Shown here: piece by piece, positions 2,707-61,220 of the stretch | How positions within the stretch are numbered: position 1 is the first letter of the stretch | Layout of the letters: every line of letters starts with the position of its first letter | Source: Sphyrna mokarran | Lineage: Eukaryota | Direction of reading: 5' to 3' | Assembly: GCA_024679065.1 (NCBI GenBank) | Contig: JAGIQG010000003.1 | Location: forward strand, 36,828,001-36,892,000 | Length of the DNA: 64,000 bases | Made by a program: the position numbers and the translations under genes | The notes under the pieces: model-generated | The model's input: the letters and a program-made list of their open reading frames with translations, nothing else | Told to the model about the DNA's origin: nothing | Databases searched by the model: none

Positions 2707-2756
2707 CTACAAAAACAGTCAGGCAACGATGAAATTTATTTTCATTGTTAAATCTA

Positions 2757-3148
2757 ATGAGTCCAGAGAGAAGAAGGCTGAGGGGTGATCTTATAGAAGT
2801 CTATAAAATAATGAGTGACATAGATCAGCTAGATAGTCAATATCTTTTACCAAAAGTAGTGGAGTCTAAAACTAGAAGGCAAGGGTTTAAGGTAAAAAGA
2901 GAAAAAAAATACAAAAGGGCCAGAGGGACAATTTGAGTGGGAGTGTCTGGAACAAGCTGCCATAGGGTAGCAGTATATGCAGATACAATTTTGTCTTTTA
3001 AAACCACTTAGACAGTTACATGTGTAAGATGGGTATAGAGGGATATGAGGCAAACCTAGCAACTGGAATTAGATTAGGGGGTTAAAATAAAGGGCAGCAT
3101 GGACAAGTTGGGCCAAAATAGTCTGTTTCCATGCTGTAAACCTCTATG
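2757..3148 (+). mobile_element. CR1 LINE 3' fragment
   Basis: ERRRLRGDLIEVYKIM...SKTRRQGFKV C-terminal CR1 ORF2 motif plus 3' tail. Confidence 0.85.
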
Positions 3149-4664
3149 GCTCCATGAATCTCATTAAAAAGCATCTTATTACATCTGTGGAGCGAAAAGG
3201 CACTAAAGTACCAACGAAGATACTGGATGGAATTTTCTGGCCTGTCCCGGCGACGGGATCTTTGAATCCCACCAAGGGCGACCCCCACCCCCCACCCCCG
3301 CCGTGGGTTCCCTGGTGGCTCGGACAATGAGCAAAGCAAATGACCATTGACTCCGATGGGATTAGAAGATTCAAGCTCTGCCACCTATATTGAACAAATG
3401 GTGTGATCAACTTCCACCACTAGATGGAGCCCAGAACTTGGTGAGCATTCAGAAGGGAAACCAGGAGCAGAGCCAGCAGCTGAGAACAAATCGCAAGGAA
3501 TAAAGAGCAGAGGCCAGGAGATAAGGATGGGAGTTGGTGAGGTCAAGAGGCAAGAGAGAGGAAAGGGTGAGTCAGCAATGCCAGGCGAGGCAAAGCCCCA
3601 ATAAGGAGATAGAGGGACTAAGAGATAAGGTGAAGGCACAGTGGCAAAAGGGATATCTATGGTAAATTACATTAAAGTGAAACTAGCAATGATAAGCAGA
3701 TGTATAACATTGTTTCAGAGTAACTTCATTGCATTGTTAATGTCAGTCTTATTTCTGACTAATAAATAAACTTCACTTTACCTTTTACTTTGTTATTTAA
3801 TATGTTAAAGTGTAAGAAAGTTAAGTGAATTGACATTAGCAAAGACCCACTGCATTTTGGTTGCATTAGTTACTTAATGTGAAATTATCTTTTCATTAGT
3901 TAAAAGCAACCAGTACAGCAAACTAATGTTTGATCAAAGTTGGTTTTGGTTTGTTTATTATAGTAAAAGTCTTAAAAACTTGGAATCTTGCCCTTTGTTT
4001 CTCTACATCTTCACTGGGAAATTTATCCCTTTTTACAAGTTATCAATCTTTACAGGAACTGTAACAATTTACAAGCCTAAACAAGCAGTTGGATGGTTAT
4101 TTGTGAAAAACCTAGACAACAGTCAAATTCAAATCTCTCTTTACAAATATACATAAAACCACAGCATCTGGATGTTTCAAGAGCAGCTCAGAGGTTAGGG
4201 ATTCTGTGGAGAGTAACTCGCCAAAGCCTGTCCACCATCTACAATGCACAAGTCAGGAGTGTAATGGAATACCCTCTACTTCCCTCAGTGCATCTCCAAC
4301 AACACTGAAGAAGCTTGTTATCTTCCAGGCAAAGCACCCCAGCCACCACCTTAAACATTCATTCCCTTTAACCATCAGCATTCTGTATCATCAGTACATT
4401 CCATCTATAAACACAATGCAGCAACTCACTAAACTAGCTTTGACTGCACAGTCGATTTGTGACTTCTACCACTTAAAAGGACAAAAGCAGCAAACACATG
4501 GTAACCCCACACTTTGCAAATTCCCGTCATCACCATCTATCCTGACTTTAATTGATATTCTGTTGCTTCACTATGTGGAGATGCTGGCATTGGACTGGGG
4601 TAAACACAGTAAGAAGTCTCAGAACACTAGGTTAAAGTCCAACAAGTTTATTTGGTAGCAAAAG

Positions 4665-4701
4665 CCACTAGCTTTCGGGCCTCTGACCCTTTGTCAGGTG
4701 A
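4665..4701 (-). ncRNA. minimal hammerhead motif, opposite arm (G8->A, probably inactive)
   Basis: TCAC-CTGACAA-A-GGGTC(AGA)GGCCC-GAAA-GC-TA-GTGG. Confidence 0.6.
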
Positions 4702-4730
4702 GTGGAGAGTTTATGATCAGAACTCTCCAC

Positions 4731-4767
4731 TCACCTGATGAAGGGTCAGAGGCCTGAAAACTAGTGA
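4731..4767 (+). ncRNA. minimal type I hammerhead ribozyme motif
   Basis: TCAC-CTGATGA-A-GGGTC(AGA)GGCCT-GAAA-AC-TA-GTGA: stem I TCAC/GTGA, core boxes, 5-bp stem II, UA cleavage site. Confidence 0.7.
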
Positions 4768-5347
4768 CTTTTGCTACCAAATAAACCTGTTGAACATTAA
4801 TCTGATGTTCTTCTTACTCTGTTGCTTCACTGTCACTGGGCCAAAAATCTGGAACTCCCTTCTGGACACAGTGGTGTGCCTACTCTAGATGGAATGCAGC
4901 GGTTGAAGATGCCAGTTCAACATCACCTTCTCAAGAGCAACTAGGAATTGGCAACAAATGCTAGCCTTGCCAGCAATGTTCACACCCCAGGAATAAATGA
5001 AAACAACTTGCCAGCAGACAGCACTGAACATAACACAGTAGAAGGGATGAGTTACCTAATTCAACACAAGTCATTGATGGAAGCAGAGATCTTCAAGGTC
5101 AACGTGGCTAAATATCATACAATTTCCACTTACTGACCAAGCCATCTACTTAAAACACAGATGCTTATGCATGAATAGGAACTGAAACTTTAACAAATTG
5201 CCATTTTTTATGAAAGATTTTATTTGAAAAGATAACTAAATATTTAAAAGTTTAGGACATAAGTAATAGTTTACATATTGATAGAAGGGGTGGGACACTC
5301 TGTGTTCAATGGCTTGCTATGAAAATACAATGAGAATTCAGACTTAC

Positions 5348-9883: not shown

Positions 9884-10590
9884 ATGTCTTGCTGTATCCT
9901 CTGACAATCTTCCTCACTATCTGCAACTCCATCAGACTAGCTACATTTTCCTCGAAATCATTCATATATACTATGAACAACAAAAGTCCCAGAACTGATC
10001 CCTGTGGAACACCGCTAGTCACAGCCTTCCTTTCAGCAAAGCACCCCTCTGTCTTCTATGGCCAAGCCAGTTCTGCATCCATCTTGCCAACTCTCCTCTG
10101 ATCCTGTGTGACTTCACCTTTCGTGCCAGTCTACCAAGAGGTACCTTGTGAAAGGCTTTGTTGAAGTCCATGTGCACAACATCCACTGTCCTTCCCTCAT
10201 TTATCATTTTTGTTACTTTCTCAAAAAACTCAATCAAGTTAGTAAGGCACGACCTATCCTTTACAAAACCATGCTGTCATTAATAAGTCCATTTGTTCCT
10301 AAATGTGAGTAATTCCTGTTCCTAAGAATCTGTTCCAATAATTTCTCTACCATTGACGTAAGGCTCACTGGCATATAATATCCTGCATTATCCCTGCTGT
10401 CCTTCTTAAACAAAGAAACAACATTGGGTATCCTCCAATCCTCTGGCACTTTACCTAAAGCCAATGAGAATACAAAGATTTCTATCAAAGCCCTGGCAAT
10501 TTCCGCCTTGCCTTCCTCAGTATTCTGGGCTAGATGCCATTAGATGTGGGGATTTATCTACTTTAATCTTTTTAAGATGCCCAATACCTC
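9884..10590 (-). mobile_element. CR1 LINE RT fragment
   Basis: VPEDWRIPNVVSLFKK...YMPVSLTSMVEKLLE; VDVVHMDFNKAFHKVP...WMQNWL. Confidence 0.9.
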
Positions 10591-11162
10591 CTCCTTTTAT
10601 AAAGAAACAATTTATTGATTAAAAAACCTTTCCTCTCGGCAGTTTTAATAGTCCACCTCCCAAGCCAATATGTTAGATTTGCAACAGATACAAACCACTG
10701 AGCCACCCTCTGGTATTTTTATTTTCATAATTCCTTAATACTGTTTTAATAAAAGTCCTTTCAGAAAATGTACAACTAAAATTTAAAATTTGGAGCAAGA
10801 TTCCAAAGAGTACAAACTTCTGGAGGAGTGATCAACTATATGACTTAACTGTGGCAGCTGCTTTTCCCTACCACCAGCAAAGCAGATATTTATATGACCA
10901 TTGCCTCATTCCGAGAAGATGTTAAGATATTTCACACCAGCCCATTTTAGTTTTATTTTTGGCAACTATGAATACTTCTGAATAAGCTGGTCCATCAGTA
11001 TTACTAAGCATCTCACTGAAACACAAACTGAATTTACCACTACATAGTTCATCAGAAAACCCGAAAGCATTTGCTGCCATGTATTGGTTACCTGACTTCA
11101 AAGCTTAAGAGAAAATGCCAGGAAAATCTCAGCAGGTCTCAGCATCTGTAAGGAGAGAAAAG

Positions 11163-11201
11163 AGCTGATGTTTCGAGTCCAGATGACCCTTTGTCAAAGC
11201 T
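11163..11201 (-). ncRNA. minimal hammerhead motif, U3-A8 core variant, within a Penelope-type repeat (11105-11201)
   Basis: AGCT-TTGACAA-A-GGGTC(ATCTG)GACTC-GAAA-CA-TC-AGCT. Confidence 0.6.
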
Positions 11202-11216
11202 GGCTTCTAACCTTAC

Positions 11217-13109: not shown

Positions 13110-14090
13110 TACAGTCAATGAAAATCAAGGATTGGAGTCATACTTAACACAAAGATAGATGGATGTAGTTGGTGGAGGCCAATCACTTCAGTCATAGGAC
13201 ATCACTGAAGGAGTTCCTCACGGCAGTATCCCAGGCCCAACCATCTTCGCTGCTTCACGAATGACCTTCCTTCCATCATAAAGTCAGAAATGCGGATGTT
13301 CATTGATGATTGCACAGTGTTCAGCACCACTCATCAGCTACTTAAACAGTCCATGTCCATATGTGACAAGAACTGGACAACAATAAGGCATGGGCTGAAA
13401 AGTACCAAGTAATATTTACGCCAAACAATTGCCAGACATCTCCCACAAGAGAAAATTCAACCATTTCCCAGTCCAACCATCTCCCCTTGACATTACCATC
13501 ACTGAATCACTAGCAACATCTTAAGGGTTTCCATTGACTAGAAACCGAACTGGATGGACCATATTAATACTGTGGATACAAAATAGGTCAGAAGCTGAGA
13601 ATTCTGACTCCCAAAGCCTGGCCACTATCTATAAGGTACAAATCAGTGTCATGGAATACTCTCCACTTGCCTGAAGCTCAACATCATTCAGGACAATGTA
13701 GCACCCATTCCAGTTCATTCAACAGTCACTCCTTCCACCACCAATGCATGTGGCAGCAGCTTGCGTCATCTAGCAGGATGCACTGCAGCAACTCACCAAA
13801 GCCCCCTCAGCAGCACCTTCTAAACCTGCAATCTCTACTACATAAAAGGACAAAGGCAGCAGAACACAACCACTTGCACCTGCAAGTTGCCCTCCAAGCC
13901 ACACATCATCCTGATTTGGAACCATATTGACATTCTTTCACTGTCACTGGGTCAAAATCCTGGAATTCTCTCCCTCCCTGACAGCACAATGGAGCACCTA
14001 TAGCCATGGTACAAGAAAGCAGCTCACCACCACTTTCTCGAGGGCAGTTAGGGATGGGCAATAAATGGTGGTCTAGCCAGAATCACAAAA
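13110..14090 (+). mobile_element. LINE RT/3' fragment (CR1/L2 superclade)
   Basis: DITEGVPHGSIPGPTIF..NDLPSII..MFIDDCTVF (GVPQGS and FADD motifs). Confidence 0.85.
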
Positions 14091-21785: not shown

Positions 21786-24700
21786 ACAGAAACACAGAAA
21801 CTTTATGGTGCAGAAGGAGATTGAATCTTCATTGGCTTGCTGAAAGGGCATGCTACTAATCCCAGTCCCCTGCCAAATCCCAATAATCTTGCACATTCTC
21901 TCTTTTCAGATAGCAATCCAATTCACTTTTGAATTCCCCAATCCACCCTTTCATGGAGATTATTCCAGACTCCAACCATCCTCTGGGTGAAAATAAAATT
22001 CCTCACATCACTTCTGCCCATTACTTTAAGTCACTGCCCTTTAGTCCTTGATGTACTTCTGAGAAGGAACAATTTCTCACTATTTACTCTGTGCGTATAT
22101 TTCAGGATCTTGAATATTTCTATCACATTTCTTCTCATCCTCCTTTTCTGCAAGGAGGACAGAACCAACCTGTTCAATCCATCCTCAAATCTATATTCGT
22201 TTATCCCTGAAATTATGCTTCAATCTCATCTTCACTCACTTCAATGTCTCACATATTTCCTCAAGCATGGTTTCCAGGACTGCACGCAGCATTTCACATG
22301 AAATCTAACTAGTACAAGTTCAGCATGACCTCTTTACCCATGTTCTCAATGCATCTAAAATAACACCTACAATACTCTCTCAACATGCTCTGCCACCTTC
22401 AATGACTTATATACCTATACACCAAAATCCATTTGTTCTTTCACCTCTTTAATAGTTTGTCTCTTTATTTAATATTGTGTCACCATATCCTTCATGATAA
22501 AATGATTCGGCACATACTTGATCTTCATCTGCCACTCGTCTGCCCAATGTATTTAAATCCTTCTGAAGTTCAAGACTTTCCTCATCACAGTTGACAATGT
22601 TTCCAATTGTCCTATCATTTGCAAATTTTAAAATGCCTACTTTCCATTTTATCCAGGAGTTAGAATTTTGCTCACAAGTTTGTTGTGCAACACTGTACCA
22701 AATGCCTTCTGAAAATCCATATACACCACATCAATAGTACTACCCTTATGAACTTCCCTTGTTACAATCTTAAAAAAAAAATTAGCTAGTTAACACGATT
22801 TTCCCTGAATGAATCCACGCTGGCTTTCCTTAATTATCCTGCACCTATCTAAATGACTATTGATTTTGCACTGATTTATAGTTTCCAAAAGTTTCCTTAC
22901 CACTGAAGTCAGAGTCTTTAGTTGCCAGCATTATCCTTAGACCCCCTTTTTGAACAAGGGTAATAACATCACAATTCTCCAGTCCTCTGGCATCAGCCCT
23001 GTGTCTAAAGAAGACTGGAAGATTATCACCAGTGCTTTTGACATTTCTACTCTCACTTCCCTCTGTGTCTATGAATGCATTTCATCCGGTCCTGGTGCCT
23101 TATCAATTTTAAGTAAAGATACCTTTCTAACATCTTTTTCTCAATTGTAAATTCCTCTAGGCACCAGAGAGTGTACTCTCTCACTTGGCCTGGATAGCAT
23201 CCTCTTCCTTTGCAAATGCAGATGCAGGTGACTCGTTTAATATAGTTGCTACTTTCGCCTTCACGTTCTAGTCTCCTTTTTTTTATCCCTAATTGGCCTT
23301 ACCTGTTCCTATACCATCCATTTATTATTTACATGCTTATAGAAAACCTTGGGATACCCTTTTATGTTAGTTGCTAGATTCTTTTCATGCTCTCTCCTTG
23401 CTTTTCTGATTCACTTTTCCACTTCCCCTCTGGTCCTCTATATTCAGCCTGATTTCCTTTGCGTTTTCTATCTGACATCTGTCATATTCATTCTTCTTCC
23501 TTTTCTTCTTCACTCTATCTTTCTCACCATCCAGAATGTTCTAAATTTGTTTGTGCTATTTTTCCCCTTCACGGGAATATATCTTGACATTGCCTACTAT
23601 ACTATCCCTTTGAAAGGGGCCCATTTTCAGCCAATGTCTTTTCCACCAACATTTGATTCCAACTCACTCTACTCGAATGAATTCCCATTCCACCGAAGCT
23701 GGCTTTCCCCTAATTAATTATGCCTCTCTGCACTGTATTTTTCCACAGCCAACCCAATACAATGGTCATCGTCCACTAAATGTTCTCGCACTGATTTTAA
23801 TCTTCTTGGGCCAACTCATTGGAGATTGGAGATTGGAGTACCATATTTAAAGGGCCCCTCAATCAGAAGATGAAGAAACTTCCCCTACAGTTCACTATGG
23901 AAGTCTCAGAGATTCCCGCCCCACCCCCAATCAGAACAGGCACTTCTCTCTCCCAACTCCTCTCAAATTATCCCCCTCTTCCACCTTTACATCCACACAC
24001 TTCCTTCCCCCAACATTCCCTGCTCCTCCATAGATGTCTGGCCCACAACCAGTACATGGGAATCTGAGGGGAAATTCAAGAAGGAGAAAATCTGGCGGTG
24101 AGAGGTAGAGAAGTATTTAACTGATAAGGAAGATGTATCAAGAGAGTGATATCGAAGTAAATAGAATACTTGACGAGTTTGATAGAATTAGAGGGGATCA
24201 TAGCCAGCCATTAAATGGGGTCAGAGTAAGAGGGAAAGTAAAAGAACCTAAATCAAGATTAACATACATGTATGTGAATGCACAGACTGTGGTTAATAAG
24301 ATTGGTGATCTACATGGACAGGTTGACAAATGGAACAATGATTTTATCAGAATCAGATCAAACAGTGCCTACTCCCTCATTGGATCAGAAGCATACTGCT
24401 GCAGAAGATTAACTTGCTCTACTATTGCTCCTCTCTGTAATTTCTTTGCCATTTTGTTTCTCTACACCCTTTTCATGAGTTGATGGTCTATACACCAGTC
24501 AATCACCTTAATACCATTTTTAATACCACTCCACACCTCTTCCCCTATATTTTTTCCCTTCTTGTCTCTCCTAAACATCTTGGACCCAGGAAAATTTAAC
24601 TCCCAGTCCTACCCTTCTTTAAGCCAGATCTCTGTCATAAAATCATTGTTCCATTTGTCAACCTGTCCATGTAGATCACCAATCTTATTAACCACAGTCT

Positions 24701-24840
24701 GTGCATTCACATACATGTATGTTAATCTTGATTTAGGTTCTTTTACTTTCCCTCTTACTCTGACCCCATTTAATGGCTGGCTATGATCCCCTCTAATTCT
24801 ATCAAACTCGTCAAGTATTCTATTTACTTCGATATCACTC
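21786..24840 (-). mobile_element. long degraded CR1 LINE (ORF2 endonuclease to 3' tail) carrying an inverted insertion
   Basis: LTYMYVNAQTVVNK..MTEIWLKEG (APE N-terminus) at ~24610-24730; RT-like sequence at 22700-23100; cacagaaacacagaaac tail. Confidence 0.85.
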
Positions 24841-25155
24841 CCTTGATACATCTTCCTTATCAGTTAAATACTTCTCTACCTCTCACCGCCAGATTTTCTC
24901 CTTCTTGAATTTCCCCTCAGATTCCCATGTACTGGTTGTGGGCCAGACATCTATGGAGGAGCAGGGAATGTTGGGGGAAGGAAGTGTGTGGATGTAAAGG
25001 TGGAAGAGGGGGATAATTTGAGAGGAGTTGGGAGAGAGAAGTGCCTGTTCTGATTGGGGGTGGGGCGGGAATCTCTGAGACTTCCATAGTGAACTGTAGG
25101 GGAAGTTTCTTCATCTTCTGATTGAGGGGCCCTTTAAATATGGTACTCCAATCTC
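23829..25155. repeat. 519-bp inverted repeat, arms 23829-24347 and 24637-25155, 289-bp spacer
   Basis: Manual comparison gives 518/519 identity; single mismatch at 24143 vs 24841; mirrored ORFs in the track. Confidence 0.97.
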
Positions 25156-27956: not shown

Positions 27957-28186
27957 ATGGCTGCCAGGAAGCCAGTGCCAAAATTCTCCAAGGGAGCCCT
28001 GACAAAACTCCTGGATGATGTGGAGCAGAGCTAGGATGTCCTATACCTGCGTTCCAACAAACATCCATCCAACAAGGTCACTACTTCACCTGAGAAGCAG
28101 TCACCCATATAGTGAATGCCAGCTCACTGCACAAGAGGACAGGGCAATAGGGCCACAAGAAGGTGAATGACCTTCTTTGCGCAGCC
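27957..28186 (+). pseudogene. Myb/SANT-like DNA-binding ORF remnant of a PIF/Harbinger transposon
   Basis: MAARKPVPKFSKGALTKLLDDVEQS*DVLY...AVTHIVNASSLHKRTGQ*GHKKVNDL (one frameshift); fits the F-S..L..L...V / VNA....RT..QC.KK.NDL pattern. Confidence 0.65.
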
Positions 28187-29051
28187 CCATATCCCCTTTG
28201 GAGTGAGGTTGCCAGCTCTATGTTTATGTCAAGCTGTTGTAAATACCAGCACCTGCTGAATAAACAGTGAGGGGGGAAACCCAGATTGAGTGCTCTCTAA
28301 TGATGTGCTAATGTATTAAAATGAGGGTCCTAGGCTCCCACAGCACTTTTCAGCAGGTGCCAGTATTTACAACAGCTTTACATAAACATGAACTTGGCAA
28401 CCAAACCTCCAAAGGGAATATCAGGCTGAGCGAAGAAGATCATTCATCTTTTTGTGGCCCTGTTGCCCTGACCTCTTCTGCAGTGAGCTGGTTTCTCTAT
28501 GTGGGTCACTGGTGGGATGGTGATCTCAGTGGATGGACATCTGTGGGAACGCGGGTATAGGAGATTGCAGCTCTGCTCCACACCATCCAGGAGTTACTCC
28601 ACTGGAAAGGGCAGTGAGATTCATGTTTTCCAACTTTCTCTGGATTTTGCGCCCACACTGATGACCCCCAGCACAGTTAACACAAGCTTGATTAAAACAA
28701 TTGTTCTTTGTTTTTAAAGAAAATAATGCTGTCACTCTTCAAAATAATTGACATTTCATCCAAGGGGTGTGTTTCTTTTCAATTACCTGTTGTGTCCAAA
28801 ATCAAGGAGCATACTTTGCATGTTAATTTTAAATAAAAAGGTTTTCCATTTCAATATCTTTTCTAAGAAATCTTGGAGATCTTAATAAGGAACAGAAAGC
28901 CAAAGAAACTGATAAACCACACTTTCAATGAGATTGCAAGTTAGTTCTAGCTCCAGTTTCTCAAAGAGCTAATGGAACAAATGTTCAAGATTGAATTATT
29001 GTATGGTAACTGAACTAAAAACAGCTTTACAGATAAAAGTTGACATTTTTT

Positions 29052-29180
29052 CTGAAGAAGTCATATGGACTCGAAACTTTAACTCTGTTTCTATCTCCAC
29101 AATGCTGCCAGAACTGCTGAGCTTTTCCAGCATTTTCTGTTTTTAATCCAGATTTCCAACATTCACAGCATTTCACTTTT
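29052..29180 (+). mobile_element. Penelope-type terminal repeat with hammerhead remnant (C3-G8 core)
   Basis: CTGAAGA-AGTC(ATATG)GACTC-GAAA-CTTT-AACT...atgctgccagaactgctgagcttttccagc. Confidence 0.7.
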
Positions 29181-36602: not shown

Positions 36603-37734
36603 AGTGCTTTGAATGCAAAATTATCTTACACAATTTTTATTTCAGGTAAATGCGTTCTTAATCCAACATTCTGAGACAACCTCTAATGTAGGGCATCCCC
36701 AGAATGCATCAACCACTGGGAGGGTGCAAGGTCACATTTCAGATTCCTAAAGAGCAAAACAAGTTCTGTAGCGACTTCAGGCTGTGAGAGTGGAAGAAAA
36801 AGTGTGGAACAAATTCTGATGCAGGGAAGGAGTAGGTCAGGTGCTTATGAAACAAAATAGGTCATAGTACAACAGAGTTACAAGAGAATGAAAGTGTGGA
36901 ACAATATCAATGACCCTCTGTGACTAAAGGAGTTGCCGTGAAATCATGGTCTATATCTGCTCTGAGGTGCTCCATCTAGTGGAGTGATTGTGAATAGACA
37001 AAATAAGAAACATTTTGCAGTCGAGTATCCCGCATTTGGGGACATCCCAGGTGTTAGCACACCCGGAGTGCAATGGAATAGCCTTGTCCTGGGCGAACCA
37101 CCTGCTTGATCATGGTTTCATCCCCATCAGATGGGTAATGACTATACTTCACAATCATGTAGATCCAGAAACACAATCCACCACCTCTGTCCCAAATCCT
37201 GTCACCATACCACTAACCCCATCCCTCCCCCCCACTTCCATCTGTCCTACAGTAACAAGGAGCCTTCCGTCTGACTACACAAATTCTAGCATTCGAGGAC
37301 ACTGATGGGTATGTTCCTAATGTAACTATTTACAATCACTGATTTCCATCCACGGTGACAATTCTTTTGTCTAATGCTCAATTCTCAGACCATGACTTAA
37401 CGCTCTTAGTAAGTCAATTAATTGATCTCCAGGCTCTTAGAACATTACAGCTCAGTACAGGTCCTACGGCCCTCGATGTTGCGCCGACCAATGCAACCAA
37501 TTTTATGACCCTCTAACCTAAACTATTCCAATGCTATCCATGTGCCTATCCACTGACTATTTGAATGCCCTTAAACTTGGCAAATCCACAACTGCTGCAG
37601 GCAGGGCATTCTATGCCCTTACTACCCTCTGAGTAAAACTCTTCTCTTTCAATAACCCATTACATCCCCGGTTCACCTCATGCCTGTTCAATATTATAAC
37701 TTCAATATTATAATTGCCTTCCTGGAACTACATT

Positions 37735-39580
37735 AGTCCCCCTTTATCGTCAATTTGTCCCCAGAAACCTCCATATTCAAAGGATTATCCTCCACCATTT
37801 CTATCAATGCCAATGTGATGCCATCCCAATTAACATTCTGAGGGGGATCGTTCCCTCCATGATGGGGACCCCATCCTCAATCATCCCCACAACTCATCCC
37901 CTTCTCATGATACCTTTCCCTAACCATCCAAAGATCTAACCATTCCTTCCAGTTGAAGAAGTAATTTACTTGCACTTCTTTCAAGCCAGTCCACTGTATT
38001 CCCTGCTCACAATGTGGTGTTGTCTCCACTCGGGAGACTATACATCGTTTTTTTTTAGAATACTCAGTCTGTTACATAACCTTGAGCTTCTCATGGTTGT
38101 TTGTCATGTGAATTCACCACTTTGCTCTTGTATGCTCATATTTCTGTGTTTGGCATGCTGCAACTTTCCAATGAAGTTCAATGCAAGTTTCAGGAACATC
38201 AGCTCATCAAACCATAGAGGGTTACAGCATGGAAAAGTCCCTTCAGCCCAACTTGTTCATACCATCTTTTGTTTTTAAAACCTCTAAGCTAATCCCAATT
38301 GTCCACATTTGGCCCATTCCCTCTGTACCCATTGTACCCATGTAACTATCTAAATATTTTTTAAAAGATAAAATTGTACCCACCTCTACTACTATCTTTG
38401 GCAGCTTGTTCCAGACACTCGCCACCCTCTATGTGAAAAAAATTGCCCCTCTGAACACTTTTGTACCTCTCCTCTCTCACCTTAAACCTATGTCCTCTAG
38501 TTTTAGACTCCCCTGCCTTTGCGAAAATATATTGACTATCTACCTTGTCTATGCCCCTCATTATTTTATAAACCTCTATAATCTCACCCACTCAGCCTCC
38601 TACACTCCAGAAAAAAAAGTCCCAGTCTATTCAGCCTCTTCTTATAATTCAATCCATCAAGTCCCAATAGCATCCTAGTAAAACTTTTCTGCATTTTTTT
38701 CTAATTTAATAATATTCTTTCTATAATAGGGTGACCAAAATTGCAGAAGTATACAAGTGAGGCCTTTCCAATGTCTTGTACAACTCCAACAAGATGTCCC
38801 AGCTCCTATACTGAATGCTCTAACTATCTTCTGACTAGGCATATTATGTGCTTCTGGGGTCAACATTGAGTTCAATAATTTCAGGCCATGAATTCTGTCC
38901 CTAATTTTGATTCTATTTTTCTGTTGCTATGTGCTGGTTTTTCTTTTCATCCATCCATCACTGGCCAGCATTTATTGCCCATCCTTCAGTGCCCTTGGAG
39001 GGCAGTTGAGAGTCAAACCACATTGCTATAGCTCTAGAGTCACATGCAAGCCAGACCAGGTAAGGATGGCAGATTTCCTTCCCTAGAGGACGTTAGTGAA
39101 CCAGATGGATTTTTCTGACAATTGACAATGGTTTCACGGTCATCAGTGGGTTCTTAATTCCAGATGTTTTTTGTTGAATGCAAATTTGACCATCTGCTGT
39201 GGTGGGATTCAAACCCAGGTCCACAGAACATTAGCTGAGTTTCTGGATTGATAGTCTAATGATAATATCACCTCTCTCTATCTTGTTCTCATATTTCTAT
39301 TTTCATTCGGAGCTCTTATTACAACTATAACCATTCCCTTTGTTTTTGTTTCATTACATCTTAATCAATTAGCTCTTCCTGTCCTCTACTCTGTCCCAGA
39401 CATTTTATTTTCTTTTTCACCCTTCCCTTTCAATAGCAAAGAAAATTTGATTTCTATCTTCCTTTAGTTCTGAAGAATAATCATGTTCACTTCCACAGAA
39501 AATAACAAACCAGCTGAGTATTTTCAACACTTCCTGTTTTCATCTCAAATTTCTAGCATTTGTGGTATTTTGTTTCAATT
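37735..39580 (+). mobile_element. Penelope-like retroelement 3' part (GIY-YIG endonuclease and terminal hammerhead remnant), split by CR1 and SINE insertions
   Basis: FTCTSFKPVHCIPCSQCGVVSTRET at ~37965 (degenerate VYCIxCxxCxxxYIGET); SGVNIEFNNFR at ~38852; AGTT-CTGAAGA at 39466-39476. Confidence 0.8.
38210..38820 (-). mobile_element. CR1 LINE 3' fragment nested in the Penelope element
   Basis: IIEVYKIMRGIDKVDS..SKTRGHRFKV; QFWSPYYRKNIIKLE. Confidence 0.9.
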
Positions 39581-43691: not shown

Positions 43692-44730
43692 CTGTATTAT
43701 AAACAATAATAAAAATATGATACAAGACTAGATTTTCTTTTAAATTGCACTTGTGCAGATTACGAAAATAAAAATGCACTAAAGGGTGAAAAATAGCACA
43801 GAGCAAGGACATTTTTCCTCTTGCTTCTCTGGTGACTATTGCATTATATTCCTGATTATGACTTGCATGGTGTGCGATGGCATCATAGCAACAAATGCAC
43901 TAGCCATTTTTAGTGTCTATCTTCTTTGTCCGTGCTACGCAATACATAATAAATTTTGGCAATGGTATGGAAAGTGCACAAATATCAGCAGCTGGGAGCA
44001 CGGTGCATAGAGTCCACCAGCTCTTAGTGACCTCCCTGCCGGGATGGCAAAGATTTCAGTCAGATCCTGTGATGTATCACACAGTCACGTCTCACAAGGC
44101 TGTCTGGAGCAGACTAGATTCGGTCCCTATTACTAATCTCTTGGAACTGGAATCCAGGACAAGGGGCGCAATCTTAACAAAAAAATTTCTAAGTGCCAAA
44201 CGAGTGAGAAAACAACAGAAATCACACTGTTTATTGGGTCAACTGCAAGGCACAATCTTATAGCACTTAGAGTAAAAAATGCCAGGATGCCATTCTTGCC
44301 AGCGGGCCAGGTGGGGGGGGGGAATTAGACCCCACCCTGCCATCAGCAGAGTTTCTCCCCACCCCACCGCTTGACTCTGTCTGCAGAGCTCCCCCCTTTC
44401 CCATGCCAATCACCCCCATCTGCATCTCATGGTAGCTCTTAGGTCGTTGAGAGCAGAGCCGGGCAGTGTCCACCAGGCAATCTATCGTTGATGATATGTA
44501 AATCATGTCATTAATATTGAAATTGGCTTCAGGCCCTAAACATTGCTGGTACGGTTAGAAGCGATGAGAAACTAGGCGCATTTCTTGTTTTTTGCTTCTC
44601 ACACAATCATGCCATCTCATCTCACCAAAAATCAGGCAGTAGCCAATCAGCTCAAATGGTTACAGCATGATGCTAGTAATGCCATGTTGTGAGTTCAATT
44701 CCCACACTGGCCAGCAATGAGCCAGCATTC

Positions 44731-52749: not shown

Positions 52750-53680
52750 ATTACAAGAAAGATGTGGGAGCAATTGAAAGGGTACAGAGGAGATTTACAA
52801 GAATGTCGCCTGGATTGGGTGGCATGCCTTATGAGGATAGGTTGAGAGAACTCGATCTTTTCTCCCTGGAGAGATGAAGGGTAAGAGGTGACCTGATAGA
52901 GGTTTATAAGATGTTGAGAGATATAGATTGGGTGGATTCTCAGAGGCTATTTCCCAGGACTGAAATGGTCGCTACAAGAGGGCACAGGTTTAAGATGCTG
53001 GGAAATAGATGTCTCAGAGGAGATGTCAAGGGTAAGTTTTTCACTTAGAGTAAAATGGGTGAGTGGAATTGGCTGCCATCGGTGGTGGTGGAAGTGAATT
53101 TGTTAGGGTCTTTTAAGAAATTTCTGGATGAGTACATGGGATTTAATAGGATTGAGGGTTATAGGTAGGCCTAGTAAGTACGGATATGATCAGCGCAACT
53201 TGTGGGCTGAAGGGCCTGTTTGTGCTGTAGTTTTTCTATATTCTATGTTCATAGGAGAAGGTTCATACGAGAATGTTCAAGGATTCTGGGCCTGTATTCA
53301 ATGGTGTTTAATGCCATCTGAAGAGGGCATCTCATTGAAACTTACAGAATATTGAAAGGCCTGGATACAGCGAATGTGGGTTAGATGTTTCCATTAGTAG
53401 ACAACACTAGGATCCGAGGGCACAGCCTTAGTGTTAAAATTGAGATGAAGAAGAATCTTTTTAGCCAGAGGATAGTGAATCTATGGAATTCATTGCCAAA
53501 GAAGGCCAGATGATTGAGTGTAATTAAGACAGGGACAGATGTGTTCTTAATTGGCCAGGGGATCAAAGATTACAGAGAAAAAGTGGGAGAATGGGGTTGA
53601 GAAACTTATCAGCCATGATTGAACAGCGGAGCAAACTTGATAGGCTGAATGGCCTTATTCTGCTTCCACATCTTATGGCC
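52750..53680 (+). mobile_element. two adjacent CR1 3' fragments
   Basis: KDVGAIERVQRRFTRM..YEDRLRELDLFSLE..RGDLIEVYKM; second copy from ~53255. Confidence 0.85.
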
Positions 53681-56509: not shown

Positions 56510-57140
56510 AACAACATTCTATGGATCATCATTGACCAGAAACTGAACTAAACCAGCCATATAAATACTGTGACTACAAAAGCAAGTCAGAGGCTGGGGG
56601 TGCTGTAGTGACTAACTCACCTCTTGATTTCCCAAGTCTTTCCACCATCTATACAGCACATACCAGGAACATGGCGGCGTATTCTCCATTGGCCTGGATG
56701 AGTGCAGCTCTAACAACACTCAAGTAGCTTGACAGCGTGCAAGACAAAGCAGCAAACTTGATCAGCATCTCATCCACTTCCTTAAACATTTACCCTTTCT
56801 CCATTGACACAGAGGCAATAGTGTGTACAATACGTAAAATGCATTACAGCAACTTGCCCAAGGCTCTTTCGACAGCACCTTCCAAACCCCTGATCTCCAC
56901 CTCTAGAAGGATGCATTGGAACACCACCACTTGCAAGTCACACTACTTGGAATATCACTAATTCTTCACTGTAATTGCTGGAGCACCCTTTCTAATAGCA
57001 GTGTGTGTTATGTACTTATAACAGATGCAGCAGATCAAGAAGGCGGCTCACTACCACCTTCTCAAGGGCAATTAGTGATGAACAATAAAATGCTGGTCTT
57101 GTCAGCAACATTCACCTCCCTCAAAAGAACGAAAAAAATA
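56510..57140 (+). mobile_element. LINE 3' fragment (same family as 4161 and 13110), preceded by a Penelope-type repeat at ~56380-56505
   Basis: Colinear similarity with 13520-14090. Confidence 0.75.
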
Positions 57141-57249
57141 CTCTGACTACAGTTGGATAGAGAACAGCATTCCCACTGAAATAAAGAATAGACAGAAGGC
57201 ATTGGGATGAGAAAAATGTGCTGCTAATAAATTCACAGAATCACACAAC

Positions 57250-57712
57250 AGAATCATAGAATTCCTACAGTTCAGAATGAGGACGTTGAGCCTATTGAGC
57301 CTGCACCAACAACAATCCCACCTAGACCCCACTCATTTACTCTGTTAGTGTCAGGGGAACTAAGGGAAAATTTAGCATGGTCAATCAACCTACCCTGCAC
57401 ATCTGTGGACTGTGGGAGGAAAACCATGATGTAGAGATGCCAGCGTTGGACTGGGTTAAACACAGTAAGAAGTCTGACAACATCAGGTTTAAATCCAACC
57501 GATTTACTTGATAGTAAACTCACAAGCTTTCGATCCTCTGGTCTTTGTCAGATGAATGAGGTGTTCGGAGGAATGAGACTGCCAGAGGAAAACCACGCAG
57601 ATACGAGAAGAACATGCAAACTCTGAACAAACAGTAACCCGAGGCTGGAATTGAACCTAGTCCCCTGGCACTGTGAGGCAGCAGTGCTAACCACTGTGCC
57701 ATTCTGCCACCC
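57250..57712 (-). mobile_element. HE1-like SINE interrupted at ~57428-57580 by one arm of the hammerhead palindromic element
   Basis: Insert gatgtagagatgccagcgttggactgggttaaacacagtaagaagtc matches 4573-4710; minus-strand motif TCAT-CTGACAA-A-GACC(AGA)GGATC-GAAA-GC-TT-GTGA at 57520-57555. Confidence 0.8.
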
Positions 57713-58898: not shown

Positions 58899-60379
58899 AA
58901 TATTCTGGATTATATAGTGTTTTTGAAGTGTAGTGACTGTTGTAATGTTCGGGGAGGTGATAGCCTAGTGATATTATTGCTAGGCTATGAACCCAGAAAC
59001 TCAGTAAATGTTCTGGGGACCCGGGTTCGAATCCTGCCACGGCAGATAGTGGAATTTGAATTCAATAAAAAATCTGGAGTTAGGAATCTACTAATGACCA
59101 TTGTCAATTGTCAGAAAAACCCATCTAATTCACTAATATCCTTTAGGGAAGGAAATCTGCAGTCCTAAACTGGTCTGGTCTTCATATGACTCCAGAGCCA
59201 CACATGTGGTGAATCTCAACTGCCCTCCAAAGGCAACTAGGAATGGGTAATAAATGCTGGACAGCCAGAAACAACCACGCCCCACAAATATATAAAAAGA
59301 GAGGGTGGAACTATGTGATAAGGTGGGAGCTAGGAAAGATTATAACAAAAATGTGTAGAGCACAAGACAGCAGAAATGCCAATGGTAGTATTCAGGACTA
59401 AAAGAAAGTACTGATAGTGGCATTAGCATAAGATAGCAAAAATGTGTTAATAGGTGAACAAAGGTCAGTATTTCGTGAAAGCAAAACAACATGAAACTTT
59501 GGTCACAATTCTGCAGCCATTCACACCAGCAATATCTTAGTCTCACCAACAGCACACCCCGGCTGTAGGTTCTATGGTGGCAAGGGGTGCATTCAAAAGA
59601 AAATCCCATTAGCAATGGTTGACACCCAGAAGATTCTGCCCCCAGCCAACAGCAGCCCACATCCTGCCGTGACAAAATACACAGTGGGTTGTGTTGTATA
59701 TCCCGGCATATATCTTTAATTATTCATATTGCATTTCTCTTTCACAACTACAGATTCTAGTTAACTCCAACTCCTACCCTTCCTCTCCCCAAGTCACAGT
59801 GTTCTTGGCTCTTAGGGAAGACATGAGGATTCTCTTCTGCATCTGGTAGGACATCACCATCTGCAGAATTGGACAATACTTTAGAGGCATTGCTGGGAAG
59901 CAGAGTGTAGGTTGCAGGATGACTAACTGCAAGGATAACAAAGAATTTCCAACAAAAGACTGACCCAAGAGAGAAAACTGAAGAGAATCAGCCTTTGGAC
60001 TTTTTGGAATTGGAAGAAAAGAATGCAAGATACTGAGGAATTTGTTCCAGCCCTGAAGCACTCAAGGAAAGAGCTTTGGAAGAGGAATGATCTTCAACTT
60101 CTGCAGTGGCAGTCATAACTGTATCTTCCAGTGCTGTATTGAAGACTGAAGAATCTTCCACGGAGGATGCCTTTCTGTAGGCAATGATGAGATAGCTATA
60201 CTTCTCTCTGCATAAGGTTGCTCCATTATGGGTAATGGGAAGATTCTGCAGTTTCAAAAGTCCAAAAGGATCTACCACAGCTTCTGTGCACATCTGTAGC
60301 TCTAGTTGGAAGAAGTCTTTCAGCTAGGATTGAAGTATGGGTGCCAACTGACTTTCACCTTGAAAGATACCAGCTCTGT

Positions 60380-61220
60380 AGCAGTGTGATCTTCCAGAGA
60401 CACTGATTATTCTGAGTGTGCCCTCTGGTCCTATACTCTCCTATGGGTGAAACCATTCTCCTAACGTTTACCCTATCTAACCCCCCTTCCTAAGATCTTA
60501 TATGCTTCAGTTATATTGTCTCTCATTCTTCTGAACTCCAACTCTTTTCTTGGGTGCTCCAAGGGCAGAACAAATTCCTCAGTATCCTGCATTCTTCTTT
60601 TCCAATTTCAAAGTGTTCAAAGGATGCAGCAAGCTCATTCTTCTGAGCTCCAATAGGCCCAACTTGTCCAATCTTGCCTGAAATGGCAGTCTCTCCATAC
60701 TAGGGATTATTCCAGTAAATCTCCTCCGTACCGCTTCCAATGGTAATATCTATTTCCTTAAATAAGAAGACCAGAACTGTAGAATTGTGGCCCCACTAAT
60801 ATCTTGAATAGTTGCAGCAACACCTCTTTGCTTTTATATTCCAGCTCCCTTGAAGTTAAAGCCAGCATTCTATTTGCCTTTCCTATTACCTTTTGCACCT
60901 GTATCACTTTCTCGGTTTTTTGAACAAGGATCCCCTTTGTGATACAGCTTTCTACAGTCTCTTCATTTAAATAACAATCAGCCTTCTCATTATTTCTTCC
61001 AAAGAGAACAATTTCACATTTTCCTACATTGAATTCCATTTCTCTCTTCTCTACCGAATCACTTAACCTTTAATTTTGTTTCTGTAAACTATTTATATCT
61101 TCCTTAAAACCTGCCTTCCCTCCAAATCATTATTACATGTTGTGGTGAGCTGTGGCCCCAGCATTGATTCATAAGGTTCTTCACTGATTACTGCACTCCA
61201 ACCTGAAAAGACCCTTTTAT
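60380..61220 (-). mobile_element. CR1 fragment
   Basis: MEFNVGKCEIVLFGRNN...KANRMLALTSRELEYKSKEVLLQLFKILVGP. Confidence 0.88.

Follow-up and report, generated by a model that had tools for sequence, protein, structure and literature searches.

A 245-bp insert with inverted hammerhead arms in a USP13 intron of Sphyrna mokarran, best read as a dead Penelope-like insertion reduced to its two ends

An intron of USP13 contains a 245-bp insert that carries a hammerhead ribozyme motif on each strand and is largely palindromic. The question raised by this locus is whether such a structure was transcribed and moved as one palindromic unit or whether its two arms were joined at the site where they now stand. 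Here, the insert was analyzed within the window, which is the whole 64-kb stretch of DNA under study and to which all coordinates refer. The best reading is that the insert is a dead insertion of a Penelope-like element (PLE) reduced to two ends, and a novel type of mobile element is improbable.

The insert, its target site and its relatives

The host DNA around the insert has the following features.

2707..5347 (ends approximate), minus strand: USP13 intron containing the element, from the flanking exons and splice sites
4150..5000 (ends approximate), plus strand: host sequence, the decayed 3' part of a LINE split by the insert, from paralogues and translation
4559..4572, plus strand: left copy of the target-site duplication (TSD, 14 bp), identical to 4818-4831 and present once in the paralogous host-LINE copy
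4818..4831, plus strand: right copy of the TSD (14 bp), identical to 4559-4572

The insert (4573-4817, 245 bp) lies between these exact 14-bp direct repeats. The 14-mer has no third occurrence within the 64-kb window, and the probability of such a match arising from base composition is approximately 4e-9 at a fixed spot and 2e-6 over 400 boundary choices. In a paralogue of the host LINE near 13915-13960, the segment is present once, which indicates that the 14-bp repeat is duplicated target DNA. The perfect 14-bp TSD claimed in an earlier note on this DNA is thus confirmed, and the same holds for its claim that the insert interrupts an older LINE, as paralogues near 13560-14090 and 56520-57150 of the window carry the host sequence. 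We take this LINE to be CR1/L2-like from a reading of its translation, the clade name having no library match behind it. The exons of USP13 run along the minus strand from approximately 52250 down to approximately 2600, and the identity of the gene comes from another exon, whose best PDB match is USP13 (E = 6e-38).

The insert and the second locus of its family are divided as follows.

4573..4608, minus strand: one-sided 3' extension (PLE "tail") of 36 nt, on the left arm only, with no mirror in the right arm
4609..4716, minus strand: left arm, a putative pLTR piece (5'-truncated 3' end of PLE type) whose ribozyme sense lies on the minus strand, the same as the sense of USP13
4717..4817, plus strand: right arm, a second 5'-truncated copy without the tail and with a 6-nt deletion, from the arm alignment
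4714..4719, no strand: inversion junction TGATCA, without a spacer, from the sequence and alignment
57427..57584 (probable span), minus strand: second locus of the insert's family, a single arm with a tail inside a SINE; hammerhead C3 at 57551, also with C3-A8

The inverted arms at 4621-4711 and 4721-4811 (91 nt) are 88% complementary, and a further 14 pairs lie beyond the 6-nt deletion. The folding energy of the insert RNA is −149.2 kcal/mol, compared with −63.2 ± 4.6 kcal/mol in 200 shuffles (z = −18.6). The earlier description of a palindromic 245-bp element is right about the hairpin, which is very stable, and needs correction in its extent; the palindrome comprises only the 209 nt at 4609-4817, and one arm has an extra 36 nt without a mirror. 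The length of this tail becomes 30 nt if the right junction is placed at 4823. Because the tail is present on one arm only, one arm reaches the end of the template and the other stops 36 nt short of it. At the junction, the symmetry is broken by one substitution and one extra base at 4712-4713. The sequence TGATCA was considered as independent evidence of microhomology and dropped, because any blunt head-to-head join is palindromic.

The second copy matches the insert at 78.8% over 132 nt (E = 2e-25), and its tail is identical to that at 4573-4608 at 31 of 36 positions (5 differences); no further credible copy of this family was found in the window using nhmmer. The single arm that the earlier note had placed at 57428-57580 is therefore real, with a slightly wider probable span and with the same G8->A change as one arm of the insert. 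It is flanked by an exact 11-bp direct repeat at 57416-57426 and 57585-57595, which is its probable TSD and may instead be an internal repeat of the host SINE, which contains a similar one. We presume this SINE to be of the HE1 type. A coincidence between the end of the second copy and the palindrome axis, pointing to a fixed 5' end of the RNA, was considered and became doubtful, as the 11-bp flanking repeat gives approximately 12-15 more bases. An ATG at the tail end of the same copy was dropped as evidence, as it overlaps the 11-bp repeat. An exact 30-nt scan of prokaryotic contigs for stray copies returned none and is uninformative on the family.

Hammerhead motifs and the hairpin

The two motifs of the insert are as follows.

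4665..4701, minus strand: minimal type I hammerhead of the left arm, C3 at 4697, C3-A8 mismatch (G8 lost), helix III AGCU and G10.1-C11.1 intact
4731..4767, plus strand: minimal type I hammerhead of the right arm, C3 at 4735 and H17 at A4763, core box intact, G10.1-U11.1, non-palindromic AACU at helix III

Each arm contains a stem I of 4 bp, CUGANRA, an extra A, a 5-bp stem II, GAAA, 2 nt and UA, so that the hammerhead motif claimed for each strand was recovered, and the cut position predicted in the earlier note corresponds to H17 of the plus arm. The CUGANGA and GAAA boxes and the UH site are complete in the plus arm, and G8 has changed to A in the minus arm and in the copy at 57427-57584. 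Among the three copies formed by the two arms and the second locus, the bulged A is present in 3/3 and G10.1-C11.1 in 2/3 (G-U in the plus arm), with a stem II of 5 bp and a stem I of 4-6 bp. At positions 15.1-16.1, the palindromic AGCU for the helix III of a dimer is present in two of the three; accordingly, the AGCT reported for helix III applies to the minus arm and the second copy, and the right (plus) arm has AACT. Dimers of minimal hammerheads were reportedly studied by Lunse et al., as related in a review. The extra A was reportedly first described in the CChMVd hammerhead.

A chance resemblance to the hammerhead within a MITE-like or other foldback DNA element would be consistent with the Rfam results. 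No hammerhead family is among the 2 gathering-level matches in the window, and none is among the 12 weak matches at 4500-4900, which reflect hairpin resemblance only, being microRNA models that score far under threshold; the Rfam hammerhead models named in the earlier note as a check thus gave no match. Long inverted repeats also occur elsewhere in the window. However, a structure-aware hammerhead descriptor matched twice in the window, whereas 100 dinucleotide shuffles averaged 0.01 matches; the descriptor was tuned after the element was known, and its 2 matches are not independent. In addition, the eight related motifs of two families in the window keep the bulged A in 8/8, G10.1-C11.1 in 7/8 and U16.1/H17 in 8/8, with variable stems, and a single arm occurs alone at the second locus. 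The termini of the insert are not mutual inverted repeats because of the tail; the 36 nt at the left end have no mirror, and inverted termini reaching both TSD copies, as in a MITE or foldback element, were not found. A chance resemblance is considered highly improbable. The extra A is no oddity; it is the same base that is kept in all eight motifs and is standard in PLE minimal hammerheads (PMC4209133).

A loose hammerhead pattern gave 6 matches in the window against 1.94 expected, which is weak alone; one is the plus arm, one belongs to the second hammerhead family described below, and 4/6 are other matches, one of them at 53318. Judged from the sequence, the motif is real at the family level, none of the present copies in the insert's family is intact, and self-cleavage of these copies is predicted to be impaired. 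In an Anolis PLE hammerhead, C3 and G8 are each required (PMC11167929). Forcing the hammerhead fold within the full palindrome costs 56.5 (plus strand) or 58.3 (minus strand) kcal/mol, compared with approximately 6 kcal/mol in an isolated arm. This penalty of approximately 57 kcal/mol indicates that the palindrome should silence both ribozymes.

A function for the host in the USP13 pre-mRNA, as a hairpin, as a source of small RNA or through selection disabling the sense ribozyme, would be compatible with the models of origin discussed below. G8->A is seen in the two copies whose ribozyme sense lies on the USP13 strand, the antisense copy keeps G8, and a splice-donor look-alike, CAG/GTGAGT, is present on the USP13 sense (minus) strand at 4734, in the right arm, where it is buried in the hairpin. 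However, two losses of G8 against one retention can be chance CpG decay. One arm has TG at positions 7-8 and the other has CA, both derivable from the same dinucleotide, so that the ancestral state was presumably CG and G8->A fits CpG decay, as the earlier note had allowed for the USP13-sense arm. Furthermore, the arms show 12 differences in 99 columns and a deletion without compensation, mismatches are not significantly enriched away from the centre (p = 0.10), and the second copy may lie outside USP13. A host function is thus very unlikely. A strand bias for the loss of G8 was also considered and found unsupported; three further A8 copies have U3, so they are not simple losses.

These three belong to a second dispersed minimal-hammerhead family in the window, with copies at 29052 (plus), 56379 (plus), 11197 (minus), 9880 (minus) and 63273 (plus) and a partial copy at 39505-39571 (plus), all of which are single arms. 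Its helix III is ACGU, as deduced from CpG decay products, and at 11197 the U accompanying A8 may derive from target DNA. The 3' ends of this family fall into long and short classes approximately 40 nt apart (3/6 each), which may represent different subfamilies. The copy at 11100-11205 (minus) starts approximately 10 nt downstream of a USP13 splice donor. A broken CR1-type LINE reverse-transcriptase fragment at approximately 9930-10600 (minus) lies directly upstream of a second-family hammerhead copy. Its segment at 10019-10276, between two copies, was considered as a PLE reading frame and rejected, as it reads as CR1-type, an assignment that we presume by recognition, and has no PDB match.

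Further repeats and RNA-like sequences were noted in the window. A 519-bp inverted repeat at 23829-24347 and 24637-25155, 100% complementary with a 289-nt spacer, reflects either an error of assembly or an inverted duplication of very recent date. A decayed inverted repeat at 28006-28260 and 28349-28595 (approximately 250 bp per arm, 78-87%) is possibly an old foldback or MITE-like element and has no match to the hammerhead descriptor, and an 85-bp inverted pair (82%, 468 nt apart) lies at 59989-60073 and 60542-60626. A U1 snRNA match at 36987-37138 (minus), just over the Rfam threshold, has an altered 5' end and a weak 3' stem and is probably a pseudogene, and a tRNA-like Rfam match at threshold at 44641-44713 (plus) is probably the head of a SINE.

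Origin of the inverted arms

No GIY-YIG match was found in the 102 scanned of 169 reading frames of at least 70 aa, and the single RVT_1 match reads as CR1-type; the link to PLEs therefore rests on non-coding anatomy. A typical PLE insertion includes a 5'-truncated copy in inverted orientation and, at one end, a tail of 30-40 bp, and the formation of tandem and inverted structures is stated there to be unresolved (PMC8557442); the architecture is described likewise in PMC2377424 and PMC8969392. In Adineta vaga, the pLTRs of Pen2a/Pen2 are inverted, one of the pLTRs has a tail of 31 bp, and palindromes at head-to-head junctions and TSDs of 8-10 bp are present (PMC3846280). Minimal hammerheads occur in PLE pLTRs with the base between 9 and 10.1 conserved and cleave weakly even as dimers, and opposite-strand pairs approximately 100-700 bp apart in Schistosoma have been ascribed to truncated PLEs (PMC4209133). 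The link to PLEs and to minimal dimer-type hammerheads drawn in the earlier note is supported by this source and by the motif anatomy, and the insert appears to be laid out, and to have worked, like a PLE end. As inverted ends, a one-sided tail, a TSD and opposite-strand hammerheads are already published for PLEs, the architecture is a known one; what sets this insert apart is the lack of any sequence between its two ends.

The kinship of the arms bears on where the palindrome was made. Over 99 columns of a three-way alignment, 12 differences separate the arms from each other, and 25 and 27 separate them from the second copy. The two arms are grouped by 20 sites, compared with 5 and 7 that unite one arm with the second copy. 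The arms are thus closest to each other, which points to a shared template or subfamily and agrees with formation of the pair at the site; sister arms would also be expected from a unit element with homogenised arms. Of the 8 hammerhead-family arms tested, 1 has a partner in inverted orientation within 1.5 kb (1/2 loci of the insert's family and 0/6 of the second family), and the one other locus of the insert's family in the 64 kb is not palindromic (0/1).

We consider it likely that single arms of PLE type were assembled into the palindrome where it now stands. Counted in favor of this reading are the tail shared with the second copy, the published PLE anatomy, the sister arms, the 1/8 frequency of inverted partners, the energetic cost imposed by the hairpin and the two 3' ends of the second family. 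Counted against it are that only two loci of the family are available, that the TSD is longer than the 8-10 bp of the rotifer elements and that no Rfam hammerhead match was obtained.

The alternative is that the insert belongs to a short palindromic element that is non-coding and has hammerheads on both strands, and whose full-length transcript is retrotransposed by a PLE partner. A single TSD encloses both arms with no coding DNA between them, PLE proteins can mobilise other pLTR-bounded sequences in trans (PMC3846280), and non-autonomous PLE derivatives with hammerheads exist (bioRxiv 10.64898/2026.07.22.740005), all of which would suit such an element. However, the sole other copy in the window is a single arm, the arms are sisters (20 sites versus 5 and 7), the ribozyme fold is disfavored by approximately 57 kcal/mol on either strand, and the asymmetry matches an insertion by-product (PMC8557442, PMC3846280); moreover, the animal retrozymes reported in the above preprint are tandem, not inverted. 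Transposition as a unit is consequently an unlikely origin, and the earlier note's proposal of a distinct ambisense-ribozyme element moving in this way is not supported within the window, given the PLE-like asymmetry, the single-arm second copy, the sister arms and the predicted sequestration of the ribozymes in the hairpin. It is similarly doubtful that the ORF-less 245-nt palindrome is a replicating, strand-symmetric, MITE-like parasite of Penelope retrotransposons, with a PLE priming end on each strand and a hairpin that keeps the ribozymes off.

If the palindrome was made at the locus, the two junctions bear on how. Between the TSD copies, two copies of one sequence of roughly 100-145 nt stand head to head. 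The new strands read inward from each TSD copy are both antisense to the ribozyme strand, so that each could be a first-strand cDNA; one begins at the end of the tail and the other 36 nt inside. With the Anolis Poseidon protein in vitro, both strands are cut and extended, two start sites bound the tail, uncleaved RNA serves as a template and initiation takes place without target homology (PMC11167929). Such extension of two strands from two tail-bounding sites would predict the structure of the insert. At the right end, the end of the arm coincides with a target/template similarity of 7 of 9, the best among 135 template positions for a span chosen post hoc; matches of 7/9 or better are found in approximately 0.2% of the 9-mers in the window. 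No comparable match is evident at the left end.

Within the locus-made reading, we lean towards priming on both strands. In this mechanism, the PLE reverse transcriptase/GIY-YIG endonuclease would nick both target strands 14 nt apart, and each nicked 3' end would prime cDNA synthesis on uncleaved PLE RNA. The two priming events would use the two initiation sites that bound the tail, one each, and the short match between target and RNA would have helped at the inner site. Both cDNAs would halt approximately 20 nt upstream of the hammerhead and then be joined at TGATCA. The hammerhead would be an ordinary pLTR ribozyme copied twice as a passenger, and both copies would have decayed afterwards, the hairpin being expected to block them in any case.

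A less probable route, which nevertheless deserves attention, is a fold-back, in which a cDNA primed at the tail end was folded at the junction, copied back until the template resembled the target and rejoined. Such an event could date from integration itself or from a later replication template switch in what had been a single-arm insertion. The 7-of-9 match exactly at the right end, best of 135 and with none evident at the left end, favors this route when set against the homology-free initiation seen in vitro (PMC11167929), and so does a junction without a spacer; self-priming is also the published interpretation of PLE junction palindromes (PMC3846280). However, a fold-back leaves unexplained why the stretch left uncopied, at 36 nt, has the length of a canonical tail, and extension of two strands from two start sites is what was demonstrated in vitro (PMC11167929).

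As an object, the insert is an ordinary decayed PLE footprint. Together with its TSD it spans 273 bp, in which the tail, the inversion point and the junctions on either side can all be seen, which makes it a compact test case for the mechanism of PLE inversion. Should the family prove abundant, inserts of this type could discriminate between priming on both strands and fold-back and could test the two in vitro initiation sites in vivo; with intronic copies of either orientation, selection against sense-strand hammerheads could also be tested. A unit element, if real, would represent a novel type of non-autonomous PLE parasite.

Comparison with known systems

PLEs are present in every vertebrate lineage sampled (PMC4350176), and SINEs exist in elasmobranchs (PMC10468316). 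In the literature consulted, neither a palindromic PLE derivative mobile as a unit nor this shark family was found; the chondrichthyan families in the supplement of the retrozyme preprint may include it. Two supplement files of PMC4209133 contain no shark terms.

The second family is like a nurse shark repeat, NSRE1, an abundant dispersed shark repeat whose probe has the GAAA-CG-U-H run of that family in a comparison by eye only (PMC1513397). The helix III of NSRE1 is ACGU, compared with AGCU in the insert's family, and the text of that paper does not mention ribozymes or PLEs. The U3-A8 combination of the second family resembles the U3-A8 core covariant of Schistosoma PLEs (PMC4209133).

Animal non-LTR retrozymes are, like the insert, non-coding and related to pLTRs with a type I hammerhead; they were found in a chondrichthyan, and many are monomers (bioRxiv 10.64898/2026.07.22.740005). 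They are defined in the same preprint as head-to-tail tandem arrays, whereas the insert is head-to-head, so that no cut-to-cut monomer is possible, and no same-strand tandem copy was found at 4573-4817 or at the second locus.

The insert shares with the minimal type I hammerheads of metazoan PLEs a short helix I, the base between 9 and 10.1, G10.1-C11.1 and a palindromic 15.2/16.2 (PMC4209133). The CUGA boxes are only 38 nt apart here, compared with approximately 100-700 bp in the Schistosoma pairs of the same paper, and both copies here are damaged. The Anolis PAc prefers AT-rich cuts and uses no target homology (PMC11167929), whereas one junction of the insert matches its target at 7 of 9 positions.

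EN+ PLEs (Penelope/Poseidon and Neptune) have, like the insert, head-to-head inverted ends, a palindromic junction, a tail of 30-40 nt at one end and a TSD around the whole unit (PMC3846280, PMC8557442). The insert differs from their inverted insertions in that there is no ORF between its ends, its unit is 245 bp and its TSD is 14 bp.
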